From an uncultured Chloroflexia bacterium (GTDB lineage: Bacteria > Chloroflexota > Chloroflexia > DTKN01), in the NCBI GenBank assembly GCA_964613665.1, contig CAZTIG010000003.1:78565-142564 (forward strand): a stretch of 64,000 nt of DNA. The letters run 5' to 3'. Numbering within the stretch: the stretch's first letter is position 1; every line of letters starts with the position of its first letter. Position numbers and translations under genes: made by a program. Below, piece after piece: positions 1 through 8,035 of the stretch. The notes below the pieces were generated by a model, which did not search any database, had not been told where the DNA came from, and worked only from the letters and a program-made list of their open reading frames with translations.

Positions 1-738
1 CAGCGTGCCGTCGGTGAGAGCCAGGTAGATCGTCCCGGCAGCGCAGAGAGGCGCGGCACGGATGCCGGCGGCACAGTCGCGCCGCCAGGCCAGCTTGCCA
101 CTGCCTCGCTCGAAAGCCAGGAGCTCTCCGCCTTCCCACGGAGCGGCCAGAGTGCCGACGAGGACGTGCCTGGGGGTCAGGACGGGCGGCGTGGAGAAAC
201 GCGGGGAGTCGCCGCTGCGCCGGGTCCTCCAGACCGGCCGGCCCGTGCGGGCATCCAGGCAGGCCAACATGCCGTTGGTGGTGGCGAAATAGGCCTGCAC
301 CTGGTCAGCGGGATCGACGGCAGCAGCCGCGCGGACGGCCCCCTCCAGGTTGCTGTTCCAGGCGGGCCGGCCGGCCGGGTCGAGGGCATAGAGATGGCCC
401 TCCTCGTCGCCGCAGAGGAAGAGGGAACCAGCCCGGGCGGCGCCGCCCTCGACGGCAGCGGGAGTCTGGTGGAGCCAGCGCTGCTCTCCACTGCTGGGAT
501 CGAGCGCCAGCAGCCCGCCACCGGCCTCGCCGCGGGCGCCCAGGCTGGCCAGGAGGAGCGGTCCGGCCTGGGGCAGGTCGGCGACGGCCAGCGCCAGGAC
601 GGGGCGTGGCGCCGCGGCCGACCAGAGCGGCCGGCCGGGCTCCGGCAGGGCCTGCGGGCGGGTCCAGCCACAGCGGCAGTCTCGGCGGGAGCCGAGGTAG
701 GAGCTGCAGGTGGGGCAGAAGATGGCGGGGTGGGGCAT
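1..738 (-). CDS. Zinc-ribbon + PQQ-like beta-propeller repeat protein (3' end runs off window; N-terminal 246 aa present)
   Basis: Hand-translated minus frame (not in ORF track because there is no stop in the window): MPHPAIFCPTCSSYLGSRRDCRCGW... followed by repeated G.LYALD..G...W motifs typical of PQQ/BamB-like propellers. ATG at 738 preceded by an AGGAA-type RBS. Paralog of the N-terminus of 34573..37599. Confidence 0.55.
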   Translation of the reverse strand, partial: MPHPAIFCPTCSSYLGSRRDCRCGWTRPQALPEPGRPLWSAAAPRPVLALAVADLPQAGPLLLASLGARGEAGGGLLALDPSSGEQRWLHQTPAAVEGGAARAGSLFLCGDEEGHLYALDPAGRPAWNSNLEGAVRAAAAVDPADQVQAYFATTNGMLACLDARTGRPVWRTRRSGDSPRFSTPPVLTPRHVLVGTLAAPWEGGELLAFERGSGKLAWRRDCAAGIRAAPLCAAGTIYLALTDGTL

Positions 739-754
739 TGCCTTTTCCTTTCGG

Positions 755-1297
755 CTACGGCTCCTGGGGTCCCAGCTCCTCCAGCACCCGGCCCAACTCG
801 CCCAGGTCCTGGCCAATAGGCAGCTCATTCAGATCCACGGTCAGCGGCACACTCACGCTGATGGGCAGGTTCATGGAGATGGGCACGGTGGTGCTGACCT
901 GGACCGGGACGATGGTCCTGACGGGGATGTCCAGGTGGATAGGAAAGGTCTGGGAGATCAGCCCGATGGCCGGCACGTCTATGTTGATGCGAAAGGCGGT
1001 ATCCACCGGGACAACCTCGTCCACGCTCACCTCCACCGTACGGCGGAGGGGGAAGTCGACGCGCAGCGGCCAATCCTGGCGGATAGTGACGTTCAGCGTG
1101 AGCGGCTCCTCGCTGGCCTGCCGCAGGGAGGAGCCCAGGCCGGCGGCGGCCTCGACGACGGGCGTGGCCTGGCTGTAGATACGCCAGCCGGCGTAGAGCA
1201 TGACCCCGTTGACGACCAGGGAGAGCAGGGTAAGCACCAGCAGCACGGTGAAGGCGGCCCAGGAAGGGCCGGGGCGGGAGCGCTGCGGATAGGTCAA
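755..1297 (-). CDS. Hypothetical membrane-anchored protein (N-terminal TM helix, beta-rich V/P/I repetitive body)
   Basis: 180-codon ORF. TTG start with AGGAGG RBS 5 nt upstream. Hydrophobic segment AAFTVLLVLTLLSLVVNGVMLYAGW. Its stop lies 17 nt upstream of the start of the downstream ZnR-PQQ gene (operon-like). Confidence 0.45.
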   Translation of the reverse strand: MTYPQRSRPGPSWAAFTVLLVLTLLSLVVNGVMLYAGWRIYSQATPVVEAAAGLGSSLRQASEEPLTLNVTIRQDWPLRVDFPLRRTVEVSVDEVVPVDTAFRINIDVPAIGLISQTFPIHLDIPVRTIVPVQVSTTVPISMNLPISVSVPLTVDLNELPIGQDLGELGRVLEELGPQEP

Positions 1298-1312
1298 GGG
1301 TACCTCCTAGAG

Positions 1313-1364
1313 TGGTTGCAGGTTACAGGTTACAAGTCACAGGTTGCAGGTCACGGGTTACAGA
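1313..1364. repeat. Array of ~7 degenerate heptamer repeats (GGTTACA / GGTTGCA / GGTCACG) in the upstream region of the 755..1297 gene
   Basis: Sequence tggttgcaggttacaggttacaagtcacaggttgcaggtcacgggttacag, read directly. Confidence 0.6.
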
Positions 1365-1485
1365 TCTCTTGGCAAGTTGGCCCGCACTTGGCTCTTCAAG
1401 CAGTCCTCAGGCAACGGCCCAGCAGGCGCGGGATCATAACAATGAGTTTTAGACCACGCCGAAGATATCCTGTACCCTCGGGTCA

Positions 1486-3273
<1,788 letters not shown>

Positions 3274-3359
3274 CTGGCGAGGCTGATCGGACACCGGACC
3301 TCCTTGTCCAGCCGCAGTTCGTGTTACACCATCCATCTCCCCCCCTTCCTTGAAGTGTC

Positions 3360-3445
3360 TCCTTGCTTCCTGCTTCCTGCTTCCTGCTTCTTGCTTCTTG
3401 CTTCTTGCTTCCTGCCTCTTGCTTCCTGCCTCTTGCCTCTTGCTA
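3360..3445. repeat. Pyrimidine-rich microsatellite (CTTGCTTC / CTTCCTG units, ~10 copies) in the divergent intergenic region between the kinase and the Vps4-like ATPase
   Basis: ccttgcttcctgcttcctgcttcctgcttcttgcttcttgcttcttgcttcctgcctcttgcttcctgcctcttgcctcttgc, read directly. Confidence 0.8.
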
Positions 3446-3552
3446 TTATACCGCCGCCGGGCCGAGAGTTCAAGCCGGCATTGCCTCCCCGCCCAAGATA
3501 TGGTATGATACCCCCGGCGGCGCACGGCGGCACCGAGAAAAGGAGGGAACCC

Positions 3553-4635
3553 ATGGACTTTTTCCGCACCCAGGCCGGCCGGCACATGACCCAGGCGATG
3601 GCCCAGGAGCGCGGCGGCAACATGCAAAAGGCCCACTACCACTACCTCAAGGCCGCCGAGTACCTCTACAAGGCCGCCCGCCAGGTGCCGGCCGAGGAGC
3701 AGGAGCGCATCGTCGTCCAGGCCGAGGCACTGCTGCAGCGCGCCCAGGCCGTGGAAAAGGCCGGCCTGGCCCCGCCCGAGGCCGCCGCGGCCGGCGAGGC
3801 CCCCGCCTGGCTGGTCGCCGAGCGGCCCTCCATCCGTTTCGCCGATGTGGCCGGCCTGGACGAGGTCAAGGAGCAGATCCGCCTGCGCCTGGTCTACCCC
3901 TTTACCCACCCGGAGAAGGCCCGCCACTACGGCATCAAGCAGGGCGGCGGCCTGCTCCTCTACGGCCCCCCCGGCACCGGCAAGACCATGCTCGCCCGCG
4001 CCGTGGCCGGCGAGATCGACGCCCCTTTCTACACGGTCAAGCCCTCCGACATCATGAGCAAATGGGTCGGCGAGGCCGAGCAGAACATCGCCCGCCTCTT
4101 CCAGGCCGCCCGCAGCACCGCCCGCGCCGTGATCTTCATCGACGAGGTCGAGTCGCTCATGCCGCGCCGGCGCGACAGCGCTTCCACGGTGATGCAACGG
4201 GTCGTCCCGCAGATCCTGACCGAGATGCAGGGCTTTGAGGAGCACGCCGGCGCTCTCCTCTTTGTCGGTGCCACCAACGAGCCCTGGTCGCTGGACACGG
4301 CTGCGCTGCGCCCAGGCCGCTTCGACGAAAAGGTCTATATTCCCCTGCCCGACCTGCCGGCCCGGCTGCGCATACTCGAGCTGCACACCCGCAAGCGACC
4401 GCTGGACCAGGACGTGGACCTGGAAGAGCTGGCCCATCTCGCCGAGGGCTACAGCGGCGCCGACCTCGTCCATATGTGCGAGAAGGTCGCCGACCTGGCC
4501 TTTCTCGAGGCCGTCCAGACCGGCGAGGACCGGCCCATCGCCATGGCCGACTTCCTCTCTGCCTTCCAGGAAGTGCAGCCCTCGGTCACGGCCAAGGACC
4601 TGGCCAGGTTCGAGAAGTTCGAGCAGAACGCGTAA
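3553..4635 (+). CDS. MIT-domain AAA+ ATPase, Vps4/katanin-like (meiotic-clade AAA)
   Basis: N-terminal three-helix MIT-like region (KAHYHYLKAAEYLYKAARQ...QAEALLQRAQAVEKA). Walker A GPPGTGKT, Walker B IFIDEV, second region of homology with arginine fingers. AGGAGGG RBS 6 nt upstream of the ATG. Confidence 0.85.
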   Translation: MDFFRTQAGRHMTQAMAQERGGNMQKAHYHYLKAAEYLYKAARQVPAEEQERIVVQAEALLQRAQAVEKAGLAPPEAAAAGEAPAWLVAERPSIRFADVAGLDEVKEQIRLRLVYPFTHPEKARHYGIKQGGGLLLYGPPGTGKTMLARAVAGEIDAPFYTVKPSDIMSKWVGEAEQNIARLFQAARSTARAVIFIDEVESLMPRRRDSASTVMQRVVPQILTEMQGFEEHAGALLFVGATNEPWSLDTAALRPGRFDEKVYIPLPDLPARLRILELHTRKRPLDQDVDLEELAHLAEGYSGADLVHMCEKVADLAFLEAVQTGEDRPIAMADFLSAFQEVQPSVTAKDLARFEKFEQNA

Positions 4636-4647
4636 GGAGACCGCCCC

Positions 4648-6012
4648 ATGCCCGATCCCCAGGATATCCAGCGCGAGTTTGAGGCCCGCCTGGAGCAGCG
4701 CATGCTGCGCCACGGGCGCGGGCAGCTCCTCCAGGACCTCCGCCGCAGCCTGGAGGAGTACGAGCAGCAGCTGCAGTCGCGCCTGCAGGCCTGGGAAGAG
4801 GGCAGCCGCGGCGCTGCCAGCCGCAGCGTGGGCGCGGTCGCTCCCTGGCCGGCCGTCAGCCGCCGCGTGGACCTGCAGGGCGCCGCCGCGCTCCAGGAGA
4901 TGGACCGGCTGATGTGGGATTCCTTTGGCCTGGCCGGCCTCTTCCCCTACCGCGCCTTTGCCGACTACCCGCTGGTCTATTGCGAGACGCTGGAAGAGTA
5001 CCTCGTCCCGCTGCTCGAGACGCTCGACGCCTCCGAGAGCACCCGCCAGGAGTGGCTGGAGACCCTGAAACGCCAAGCCGAGGAGGGAGCCCGCCAGGGC
5101 AGCGGCGAGATGGGCTACAACCTGCCCGGGAGGGGCTGCTTCCTCAACGGCTGGTTCCTGGCCTACGGCCGGGCGGCCAGCGCCCGCGCCGCCCTGGCCG
5201 ACCCCACGGTCTTCCCCAGCATCCTGGCCACCGTGGCCCACGAACGCCAGGGACACGGTTTCCTGGTGATCTACACCCAGTTGGGCGCGGAAAAGGCCCG
5301 CCTGGGCCTGCAGCGCTACGAGATCGCCCGACGCTTCAACCTGCGGCGCAGCGATACCCCCGAGAGCGCCCTGCTGGGGGAGAAGGAGGGCATTGTCTTC
5401 TACTCCTCGCTGCTGCTGGAGGAGGGCTGGGCCACCTGGATCGAGCAGCAGATGTCCAGCCTGGCCCACCAAGCCGGCCTGACGGTGCAGGAGCCGCGCT
5501 TGCCCTCGCGGGGCTACACCGTCGCGCGGGTGGGTGACCTCCTGCAGCGGCTGCAGGCCGGCCGCAGCGACCAGGCGGAGGCTGCCCGGGCAGCGCTCGA
5601 CGCGCTGGCCGCCCTCTTCATCCGGGAGAGCCCCAGCGACGTGCTGATCCACCAGGCCGTGCGCATCCTGCAGCAGGCCGGGCCCGCCCTGGACGAGGCC
5701 TTTGGCCGCGAGTTCGGCCAGCCCTCGCCCTACGTGCTGGGTTACCTGCTGCTGCAGCGGCTGGCCGGTGCCGTGGGCCCGCGCTGCGTGCCCCATGCGG
5801 TGGGCTTGGCGGGCAACTTGAGCTACGGTCTGCAGAGCATCTCTGTGAGTGACCTGGAGTCGGTGGTGGCGGAGAACCCTCGCCTGAACGCCGACAGCCG
5901 GTTGGCCCTGCTGGGCAGCCTGCAGCTGCAGCGCCCCGGCGACGTGGCCGAACTGGCCCGCCTGGCACGAGAGGAGCTGAACCTGGCCGTGCCCGAGGGG
6001 TGGCCGTGCTAG
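4648..6012 (+). CDS. Hypothetical soluble protein, translationally coupled partner of the Vps4-like ATPase
   Basis: 454-codon ORF with GC3-rich codon usage. AAGGAG RBS overlaps the upstream stop. No recognisable domain except an HERQGH (HExxxH-like) motif. Confidence 0.6.
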   Translation: MPDPQDIQREFEARLEQRMLRHGRGQLLQDLRRSLEEYEQQLQSRLQAWEEGSRGAASRSVGAVAPWPAVSRRVDLQGAAALQEMDRLMWDSFGLAGLFPYRAFADYPLVYCETLEEYLVPLLETLDASESTRQEWLETLKRQAEEGARQGSGEMGYNLPGRGCFLNGWFLAYGRAASARAALADPTVFPSILATVAHERQGHGFLVIYTQLGAEKARLGLQRYEIARRFNLRRSDTPESALLGEKEGIVFYSSLLLEEGWATWIEQQMSSLAHQAGLTVQEPRLPSRGYTVARVGDLLQRLQAGRSDQAEAARAALDALAALFIRESPSDVLIHQAVRILQQAGPALDEAFGREFGQPSPYVLGYLLLQRLAGAVGPRCVPHAVGLAGNLSYGLQSISVSDLESVVAENPRLNADSRLALLGSLQLQRPGDVAELARLAREELNLAVPEGWPC

Positions 6013-6073
6013 CCAGGAGGAGGAAAGGGGAGCCCAGGGGATACGACAGAGGCAAGATCAAGAGGAGATCACC

Positions 6074-8035
6074 ATGGCCGGCCAGGAGTCGAAGAAGACA
6101 CTGGGGAGGTATGAGATTCAGGAAGAACTGGGGAAGGGGGCCTTTGCTACCGTCTATCGGGCGCGGGACACGGTCCTGAACCGCGAGGTCGCGCTCAAGG
6201 TGCTGCACCCGCAGTTACTGGTGGATCCGGACTGGGTAGCGCGCTTCAGCCGCGAGGCCCAGGTGATGGCCAACCTGCGCCATCCCCACATCGTCGCCAT
6301 ATACGACGTGGTCGAGGGGGAGGGCCGGCTCTACATCGTCATGGAGCTGGCCCGCGGCCCGCACCTGGGGCGGCGCATCGCCGAGCGGGGCCGGTTGAGC
6401 TGGGCCGAGATGCTGGCCGTTCTGGGGCCGGTCGCGGCGGCGCTAGACCATGCCCATGGGCAGGGGGTGGTGCACCGCGATCTCAAGCCGGCTAACATTC
6501 TACTGGACAGCGAACGAGGGCCGCTGGTGAGCGATTTTGGCTTTGCCCGGCTGGTGGGGGAGTCGTCGCTCAGCGGCTCTTACAGCGGCGGTGTGGTGGG
6601 CACCCCGGCCTACATCGCCCCCGAGGTGTGGCGGGGAGAGAAGGCCGGCCCCGCCGCCGACATCTACGCCCTGGGCTGCATCGTCTGGGAGATGCTGCGC
6701 GGGGCGGCCCTTTTCCAGGGCGACTCCCCGGCCGTGGTGATGCAGAAGCACCTGCTGGAGGGTCCGCAGTTCCCGCAGGTGCGGCCGGCGGGGTCGCCGC
6801 CGTGGCTGGAGGAGGTGCTGCGCCAGGCCCTGGCCCAGGAGCCGGGGCAGCGCTGGAGCAGCGCGGGCGAGCTGGCGCGGGCGCTGGAGGCGGCCCTGGG
6901 CGGTCTTTCGGGCGGGGGGAGAAAGGAGGGCGGGGAGGCCGCCTACCGGGCCGCCCTGCGCCAGGCCTGGCTGGCCGACAGGCTCGAACAGGCCGAGGCG
7001 GCGCTGCGCCCGCTGCGCCAGCGCCTGCGGCCGGCCGAGGCGCGGCGGGTCGAGGAGGAGGTCCGCGGCGAAGTGGCCCAGGCCCTGCTGGAGCAGGGCC
7101 GCAGAGAGGAGGCCGCCGGCCAGGCCGAGGAGGCCGCGGTCACCTACCGCCGGGTGCTGCAGGCCGCGCCAGAGGGGCCCGCGGCGGCGCAGGTGCAGGA
7201 GGCACGGCGGCGCTGGCTGGACATGGCCCAGGAGTGGCAGGAGGCCGGCGGGACCGCGGAGGCGCGCTGGTGGGCCGGCCTGGCGGAGGCCGTGGCAGGC
7301 ACGACGATTCCGAACAGACAGCCTTTCGAGCCCGAGCTGGTGCGCATCCCGGCCGGCGAGTTCCTCATGGGCAGCGACAAGAAGAAGGATCCCAAGGCCT
7401 TTGATGACGAACTCCCGCAGCACCGCCTCTACCTGCCCGAGTACCACATCGCCCGCACGCCGGTGACCAACGCCCAGTACGCCGCCTTCGTGCGGGCGGC
7501 CGGCTACCAGGCGCCGGAGCACTGGCAGGGCGGCCGGCCGCCGGCGGGGGAGGAGGAGCACCCGGTGGTGTACGTCTCCTGGGAGGACGCCCTGGCCTAC
7601 TGCCACTGGCTGGCCGAGGCCACCGGCCGGCCGTACACCCTGCCCAGCGAGGCCGAGTGGGAAAAGGCCGCCCGCGGGCCCGATGGGCGCGTCTACCCCT
7701 GGGGGGACGAGTGGGACGCCCGGCGCTGCAACAGCTCAGAAGGGGGCAAGGGCGGGACCACCCCGGTGGGGGCCTACCCGGCCGGGGCCAGCCCCTACGG
7801 CCTGCTGGACATGGCCGGCAACGTCTGGGAGTGGACCAGGAGCCTGTACCAGCCCTACCCCTACGACCCCGGCGACGGTCGGGAGGATCTGGGCCCGTCG
7901 GGGCCGCGGGTGCTGCGCGGGGGCTCCTGGGTCAGCGACGAATGGAATTCGCGCGCGGCCTACCGCAACGGCATCATCCCGGACTTCCACGACGTCTACA
8001 TCTGTTTTCGGTGCGTCGTGTTGCCAGGACACTGA
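6074..8035 (+). CDS. Ser/Thr protein kinase fused to a C-terminal FGE-sulfatase (formylglycine-generating enzyme/SUMF1-like) domain
   Basis: Kinase motifs GKGAFATVYRA, HRDLKPANILL, DFGFA. C-terminal RIPAGEFLMGS...HPVVYVSWEDALAYCHWL...GNVWEWT...RGGSW FGE-sulfatase signature. Confidence 0.85.
   Translation: MAGQESKKTLGRYEIQEELGKGAFATVYRARDTVLNREVALKVLHPQLLVDPDWVARFSREAQVMANLRHPHIVAIYDVVEGEGRLYIVMELARGPHLGRRIAERGRLSWAEMLAVLGPVAAALDHAHGQGVVHRDLKPANILLDSERGPLVSDFGFARLVGESSLSGSYSGGVVGTPAYIAPEVWRGEKAGPAADIYALGCIVWEMLRGAALFQGDSPAVVMQKHLLEGPQFPQVRPAGSPPWLEEVLRQALAQEPGQRWSSAGELARALEAALGGLSGGGRKEGGEAAYRAALRQAWLADRLEQAEAALRPLRQRLRPAEARRVEEEVRGEVAQALLEQGRREEAAGQAEEAAVTYRRVLQAAPEGPAAAQVQEARRRWLDMAQEWQEAGGTAEARWWAGLAEAVAGTTIPNRQPFEPELVRIPAGEFLMGSDKKKDPKAFDDELPQHRLYLPEYHIARTPVTNAQYAAFVRAAGYQAPEHWQGGRPPAGEEEHPVVYVSWEDALAYCHWLAEATGRPYTLPSEAEWEKAARGPDGRVYPWGDEWDARRCNSSEGGKGGTTPVGAYPAGASPYGLLDMAGNVWEWTRSLYQPYPYDPGDGREDLGPSGPRVLRGGSWVSDEWNSRAAYRNGIIPDFHDVYICFRCVVLPGH

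Follow-up and report, generated by a model that had tools for sequence, protein, structure and literature searches.

A heptanucleotide tandem repeat in the predicted leader of a protein kinase gene from an uncultured Chloroflexota-like bacterium

What does a twelve-unit tandem repeat do between two divergent genes, and does it do anything at all? The repeat in question lies at 3360-3443 of a 64-kb stretch of DNA (hereafter, the window) from an uncultured, Chloroflexota-like host. To its left, on the minus strand, is the gene of a Ser/Thr protein kinase (1486-3294; 602 aa), with an N-terminal Pkinase domain (E = 7e-47) and a hydrophobic C-terminal half. The gene starts at a GTG preceded by AAGGAGG, and the protein is 100% identical over its 602 aa to a protein (P0001) from one NCBI contig. 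To the right, on the plus strand, is the gene of a Vps4-like AAA+ ATPase (3553-4635; 360 aa) with AAA, AAA_lid_3 and Vps4_C domains. An initial annotation of the window had described just such a divergent kinase/ATPase setting, and the Pfam domains found in both genes bear it out.

The surroundings have repeats of their own. Beyond the ATPase come a protein of 454 aa, of unknown family, and a second kinase, which has an FGE-sulfatase domain at its C-terminal end. The two kinase domains are paralogous: they appear as an inverted repeat (2812-3272 and 6102-6562; 461 nt, 74% complementary), and the kinases flank the ATPase and its unknown neighbor. At the other end of the first kinase gene, a 46-nt direct duplication (1446-1491 and 1519-1564; 89% identical) straddles the stop codon, with an exact core of 33 nt (1450-1482, equal to 1523-1555). 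Its downstream copy would encode the same ending, PRVQDIFGVV followed by a stop, in another frame, which suggests that a 73-nt duplication replaced the original C-terminal tail of the kinase.

The repeat itself is not in doubt. Direct reading, TRF and a register parse agree on twelve head-to-tail units of 7 nt that fill 3360-3443 (84 bp) with exact 7-nt spacing, so the tandem repeat that had been reported at 3360-3445 does exist. TRF placed it at 3362-3444 (period 7, 11.9 copies, 86% matches, 0% indels, score 110) and scored a period of 14 too. The order of the units on the plus strand is TCCTTGC, three copies of TTCCTGC, three of TTCTTGC, and then TTCCTGC, CTCTTGC, TTCCTGC, CTCTTGC and CTCTTGC. 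The unit can be summarized as TTCYTGC/CTCTTGC on this strand; on the minus strand, in the sense of the kinase, it is (GCARGAR)12, free of T/U. Four unit variants are present, distinguished by C/T transitions alone, and the longest perfect run is three units (register parse). The repeat had been called perfect or near-perfect, but its units are imperfect. Of the two units that had been named for it, CTTCCTG is a correct rotation, but CTTGCTTC is 8 nt long and is no unit of the array. The strong strand asymmetry that had also been noticed is real: in 3362-3444 the plus strand has 39 T, 32 C, 12 G and no A, and is thus 86% pyrimidine. The tract is 53% GC as against 68.4% in the whole window, a measured value that comes near the 70% that had been quoted for the genome without reaching it.

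Two further analyses set the tract apart from the rest of the window. A pattern of two units, one mismatch allowed, has 12 matches in the window, 11 of them overlapping in the tract and one elsewhere; in 100 dinucleotide-preserving shuffles the expectation was 0.65, and none reached 12. When all 64 kb were scanned for short-period self-similarity by autocorrelation (lags 4-16, at least 80% over 35 nt), two stretches only were returned, the tract and another at 1314-1363. The array is non-coding, as it lies between the start codons of the kinase (3294) and the ATPase (3553). It was considered as coding sequence and rejected, being 84 nt long, imperfect and of a period that 3 does not divide; long ORFs do run across it, but as spurious open frames of the kind usual in a high-GC genome. 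The common description of a heptanucleotide SSR (a tandem 7-nt unit in at least 3-4 copies, without spacers) fits the array. In sum, 3360-3443 is a real but ordinary bacterial heptanucleotide SSR (microsatellite/VNTR). Heptameric SSRs are over-represented in many bacterial genomes, possibly owing to the geometry of polymerase slippage, as summarized from a 2007 survey in a later paper (PMC4692102).

The second stretch, found by TRF as well as by autocorrelation, is a heptamer array too, with a unit unrelated to that of the first: (GGTYACA)7 on the plus strand and (TGTRACC)7 on the minus strand, at 1314-1363. It is 2 kb away from the first and more degenerate. Its end lies directly ahead of the SD (AGGAGG) of a minus-strand gene (755-1297), 16 nt short of the TTG with which that gene starts, and the array is identical in all seven Logan samples. 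In its sense strand TAA and TGA fall in all three frames.

Where are the promoters of the two divergent genes? The initial annotation held that the tract is exactly where both must sit. A scan of 1000-4000 for a sigma-70-like consensus, whose rules this uncultured Chloroflexota-like host may not follow, places them elsewhere. The predicted kinase promoter (minus strand, 3445-3473) has a -35 TTGAAC (3473-3468), a 17-nt spacer and a -10 TATAAT (3450-3445), and agrees with the consensus at 10 of 12 positions. The predicted ATPase promoter (plus strand, 3481-3509) has a -35 TTGCCT (3481-3486), a 17-nt spacer and an extended -10 TGgTATGAT (TATGAT at 3504-3509), and agrees at 9 of 12. These two are the best sigma-70-like matches that the scan found in the intergenic region. 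They stand back-to-back in a less GC-rich core of 65 bp (3445-3509), the plus-strand promoter 31 bp further right than the minus-strand one. The minus-strand match is non-trivial, since both strands of the whole window have only five sites with at least 10 of 12 positions, this one among them, against 0.4 in shuffles. Its -10 ends 1 nt from the array, and the implied kinase start site (about 3438) is within the first repeat unit as read in the kinase sense. The implied ATPase start site is at about 3516, which leaves the array some 70-155 bp upstream of it. A plus-strand promoter that would use a TTGC of the array as its -35 was also considered: the nearest, TTGCTT, is 19 nt from a TATTAT, outside the usual 16-18 nt, and it was rejected on reading the sequence. 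Neither promoter, then, is predicted to be carried by the array; both are predicted to lie directly to its right.

Since the array is downstream of the predicted kinase -10, it is predicted to be transcribed leader. To go by the sequence, the array is most likely the first ~80 nt of a kinase 5′-UTR of about 144 nt, and not part of either promoter. The predicted UTR (minus strand, 3295-3438), which combines the promoter prediction with the sequence, would have in order the array (the first ~79 nt, to 3360), a purine-rich stretch with a G7 run, an alternative ATG, the SD AAGGAGG and the GTG at 3294; the array ends 65 nt before this start codon. The G7 run (C7 on the plus strand, 3339-3345) is a potential slippage site in its own right, just upstream of the alternative ATG (3336-3334), which is in frame with the kinase. 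As RNA the array would be 86% purine and U-free, and because it is U-free it has no start or stop codons. Folding gave no significant structure in the leader: the MFE of 175 nt was -37.6 kcal/mol as compared to -36.7 ± 3.1 kcal/mol in dinucleotide shuffles (z = -0.28), and the array was unpaired in the centroid structure. A search of 1-8000 against Rfam stayed empty at E ≤ 1, as did one of the whole window at gathering score, and no tRNAs were found in the window.

The explanation we prefer, and hold with moderate confidence, is that the array is a heptamer SSR made by slippage and transcribed in the kinase leader, where its effect would be graded or near-neutral; the start site, the length variation and the effect on expression are what we infer in it. 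Replication slippage would have built the array and would occasionally resize it, in steps of 7 or 14 nt. The -10 of the kinase promoter would abut the array, and the kinase mRNA would open with ~80 nt of it. Any effect would then be post-transcriptional and graded, at most that of a rheostat and not that of an on/off switch. It could come from the length of the leader, from an entry region that is purine-rich, unstructured and dotted with weak Shine-Dalgarno-like motifs, or possibly from transcription that is prone to R-loops, and it may be near neutral. Several points weigh against this explanation. The promoter is a predicted one, a consensus match in a Chloroflexota-like genome. Imperfection of the array, with a longest perfect run of three units, lowers slippage rates, and the neighboring heptamer array is the same in seven samples. 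Relatives, the nearest of which have ATPases only 58-64% identical, show no array at the orthologous place. Finally, the unit is no commoner than control heptamers, which argues against a sequence-specific function.

Is there any sign that the array has slipped? To judge from the order of the units, the blocks of identical ones (AAA, BBB, ACAC, C) are records of past slippage. To this extent the earlier suggestion of slipped-strand mispairing holds; the phase switch that was to follow from it is not supported, as no -35/-10 spacing or reading frame would be altered. Assembly breaks bear on more recent changes. Looking up the exact protein brought out the identical ATPase in four independent short-read assemblies (Logan, k=31), one contig for each of four sequencing runs. 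Every one of these contigs starts within the array, at 3406 in three cases and at 3407 in the fourth, while the other ends differ. In the allele of the window no 30-mer occurs twice (exact repeats reach 20 nt at most), and a k=31 de Bruijn simulation of this allele gave no break. Because this allele by itself gives no break at k=31, the contig starts at 3406 and 3407 mean that the array may vary or may have a near-copy elsewhere. In the simulations, a start at 3407 arose when the 14-mer TTCCTGC-CTCTTGC was present three or more times, whether in the allele itself or in an admixed one, and a start at 3406 from an admixed allele that has TTCCTGC for TTCTTGC before unit 8, as a three-unit deletion would produce. 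The 33-nt duplication at the end of the kinase gene served as a control: by the same k-mer logic it predicts a break at 1479, and six of the seven Logan contigs with the neighboring gene begin there. The breaks may thus reflect heterogeneity of the array in natural samples, or a different allele there. A paralogous array elsewhere in the genome or the community that shares a 30-mer (TGCTTCCTGCCTCTTGCTTCCTGCCTCTTG) may be the source instead, as it would produce identical breaks. It should be noted that the ends of Logan k=31 contigs (L001-L004, L165-L171) match repeated k-mers or arrays to the base, which makes them usable as an indirect detector of repeat alleles unlike those of a reference.

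It is possible, if on balance doubtful, that the array is a neutral by-product, slippage junk that is tolerated in a long intergenic spacer and affects neither gene, whether it is transcribed or not. Relatives of the locus speak for this view. Among 185,579 species genomes and JGI metagenomes, the nearest relatives of the ATPase are 58-64% identical, the best from Chloroflexota MAGs and the next from Planctomycetota. Even the closest of them reach only 60-64% identity, and none has an array at the orthologous position; the lack of such an array, of an Rfam match and of a leader structure favors neutrality. Arrays of 7- or 8-mers of many unrelated units are common in the intergenic DNA of these genomes: in 1.2 Mb of loci around the ATPase relatives of Chloroflexota and Planctomycetota, among arrays of at least three copies, and leaving aside periods divisible by 3, 51 had period 8 and 31 had period 7, with three or fewer for each of the other periods. 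Many of them are within a few nt of gene boundaries, as far as crude gene calls can place these. Nor is the unit special in IMG/VR: (GCARGAR)4 occurs in 42 stretches, and the composition-matched control heptamers GACRGAR, GCARAGR and CGARGAR in 51, 28 and 13, respectively. The idea of a special GCARGAR family was rejected on these counts. On the other side, the array tightly abuts a strong -10 match, so that transcription is likely, and a change of 80 nt in a 5′-UTR is seldom without any effect. There is also a hint of constraint in orientation. When purine-rich heptamer arrays of the IMG/VR loci stand no more than 200 nt ahead of an ORF (by crude ORF calls), 24 have their purines on the sense strand and 6 on the other strand. 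By this count, the orientation of the 3360-3443 array to the kinase is the common one.

The surveys turned up other arrays that deserve a record. An octamer family, GTGAGAAY/GTGGGAAY, forms tandem arrays in intercistronic gaps around the ATPase orthologue in Planctomycetota loci (L063: 3361-3417, 4029-4092 and 4206-4244; L065: 5845-5897 and 5924-5962; L076: 3351-3388). These are often paired with an inverted (TTCTCAC)n array 15-110 nt away, and could form long hairpins of tandem octamers. Other arrays are paired with their own reverse complement at 15-80 nt, again able to form hairpins: heptamers in L050 (1697-1747 and 1827-1872) and L032 (3430-3461 and 3486-3519), and octamers in L055 (8310-8343 and 8358-8384). 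Two large IMG/VR contigs of low GC (32-38%) have many dispersed inverted pairs made of (CTCCTGC)3-6, 8 nt and (GCAGGAG)3-6, which amount to stems of about 20-35 bp of tandem perfect Shine-Dalgarno/anti-SD-like heptamers (IMGVR_UViG_3300023029_000004: L174, L176, L179, L193 and L212; IMGVR_UViG_3300023035_000005: L178, L180, L191 and L199). The dominance of 7-8 nt arrays across the Chloroflexota and Planctomycetota loci, sometimes as inverted pairs, could justify a genome-wide survey.

Could the array act as a platform in RNA? The (GCARGAR)n leader would then recruit the 30S subunit through weak SD-like motifs, or titrate a GGA-binding protein of the CsrA type. Weak anti-SD complementarity is indeed enriched: 44% of the 10-mers of the array reach -5 kcal/mol or below with a generic 16S 3′ tail, as against 21% in the kinase coding sequence. 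Six of the twelve units have a GGA, and MacGregor proposed binding of S1, Csp or CsrA for heptamer arrays upstream of start codons (PMC4679880). However, the energies are -5 to -8.6 kcal/mol, well below the strength of the true SD (-12.4 kcal/mol), the GGA motifs are not in hairpin loops, none of the five genes scanned near the array is a csrA, and the array stops 65 nt short of the start codon. We consider such a platform very unlikely.

Less credible still would be a platform in DNA, another idea of the initial annotation, where a regulator bound to the heptamers controls one or both of the divergent promoters, by analogy with ToxT and H-NS at the TTTTGAT heptads of ctxAB. Twelve regularly spaced motifs beside two predicted promoters would suit such a role, and heptad arrays are known as regulator platforms (ctxAB; the recO heptamers of Nostoc). 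But a period of 7 bp turns successive sites to different faces of the helix, and the predicted position, past the -10 of the kinase promoter and over 70 bp ahead of where ATPase transcription would start, is not favorable to it. Furthermore, no candidate regulator gene is adjacent, and the motif does not recur as an array elsewhere in the window or in related loci. We regard this role as improbable.

Finally, H-DNA (an intramolecular triplex), which the initial annotation had also proposed, requires a long mirror-symmetric homopurine/homopyrimidine tract, and in spite of its 86% pyrimidine on the plus strand the array, with a G every 7 nt, has no pyrimidine run longer than 6 nt and no perfect mirror arm longer than 2 nt; the companion idea of an on/off phase switch through promoter geometry, to which a tandem repeat adjoining promoters lends itself, is likewise barely tenable, since the array is outside both predicted -35/-10 spacers and the coding sequence and a change in units cannot toggle spacing or frame. 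For the same reasons, and with its four unit variants and perfect runs of three units at most, the array does not qualify as a classical phase-variation (contingency) locus, where the repeat is perfect and its unit changes alter frame or -35/-10 spacing.

What does it all mean? As one more example of the long-described heptamer microsatellites in bacterial intergenic DNA, the array matters little alone. The main use of the analysis is in the corrections: the tract is no promoter region but most likely forms the start of the kinase mRNA, it is no H-DNA, and it is no switch of spacing or frame. If reads confirm the length variation, it would become a convenient VNTR strain marker and a candidate for graded tuning of a signaling kinase in an uncultured lineage.

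How does the array compare with known systems? The GGGAATC repeats of Xanthomonas are, like it, an intergenic heptamer SSR in a high-GC genome, and both their length and sequence differ between close relatives (PMC4692102). In contrast, GGGAATC is a G-tract unit able to form G-quadruplexes, and the unit here is without a G3 run. The ctxAB promoter of Vibrio cholerae also has heptad tandem repeats (TTTTGAT) beside it, and their copy number varies between strains (10.1101/2021.05.14.444153). Known transcriptional regulators are recruited to those heptads, which are rich in AT and precede the -35, whereas the array here is moderate in GC and downstream of a predicted -10.

A further parallel is offered by the STRR heptamers of Nostoc and the TAACTGA arrays, which lie just upstream of start codons in Beggiatoaceae and cyanobacteria (PMC4679880). 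These are intergenic heptamer arrays near promoters or start codons, as is ours, and transcriptional or translational roles have been proposed for them (PMC4679880; PMC4692102; 10.1101/2022.06.06.494920); the Nostoc heptamers in such places affect reporter expression (10.1101/2022.06.06.494920). The array at 1314-1363, with its end so near a start codon, closely fits this geometry. Unlike the 3360-3443 array, however, STRR and TAACTGA each repeat a conserved unit at sites throughout the genome, mostly in 2-6 copies at a time and in up to 43 at some; what we have is one array, twelve copies of a private unit that end 65 nt short of the start codon. No dispersed heptamer family was seen: within the 64-kb window GCARGAR forms an array only at 3360-3443, and the unit is absent from 160 related loci. 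Probably of the same phylum is Chloroflexus aurantiacus, with 22 satellites from purine-rich (GATAGRA)n, the main members of the largest bacterial satellite family (PMC6749651). There, too, the heptamers are purine at six of seven positions, have R-degenerate positions and form short tandem arrays. The difference is again in number, 22 satellites genome-wide there versus one array of GCARGAR in 64 kb here, with a neighbor array that is unrelated.

Another comparison is with the (ATCTTTC)n repeats of Haemophilus influenzae hmw1A/hmw2A, which are transcribed in the 5′-UTR and tune expression via a hairpin and RNase III (PMC12721329). In both cases more than ten units of 7 nt lie between promoter and start codon, in a 5′-UTR that is predicted here; both repeats are pyrimidine-rich on one strand; and in both a change in units would act gradedly and not by frameshift. 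The hmw repeats are perfect, and by pairing with a G-rich segment they form a long hairpin, which is cut by RNase III. By contrast, the 3360-3443 array has imperfect units, would appear in the RNA as its purine-rich strand, varies in unit number only putatively, and belongs to a free-living, Chloroflexota-like bacterium and not to a host-adapted pathogen. No partner for an hmw-type hairpin was found in the leader, where the part downstream of the array is also purine-rich. We think it clearly unlikely, but worth stating, that the array still slips actively and, transcribed as a purine leader without U, tunes the expression of a membrane Ser/Thr kinase as a heritable rheostat, and that the gene-proximal 7-/8-nt arrays of Chloroflexota and Planctomycetota could be a general form of evolvable post-transcriptional control. 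If so, tuning by SSRs in the manner of hmw would extend beyond host-associated pathogens, and would do so without the hairpin/RNase III mechanism.
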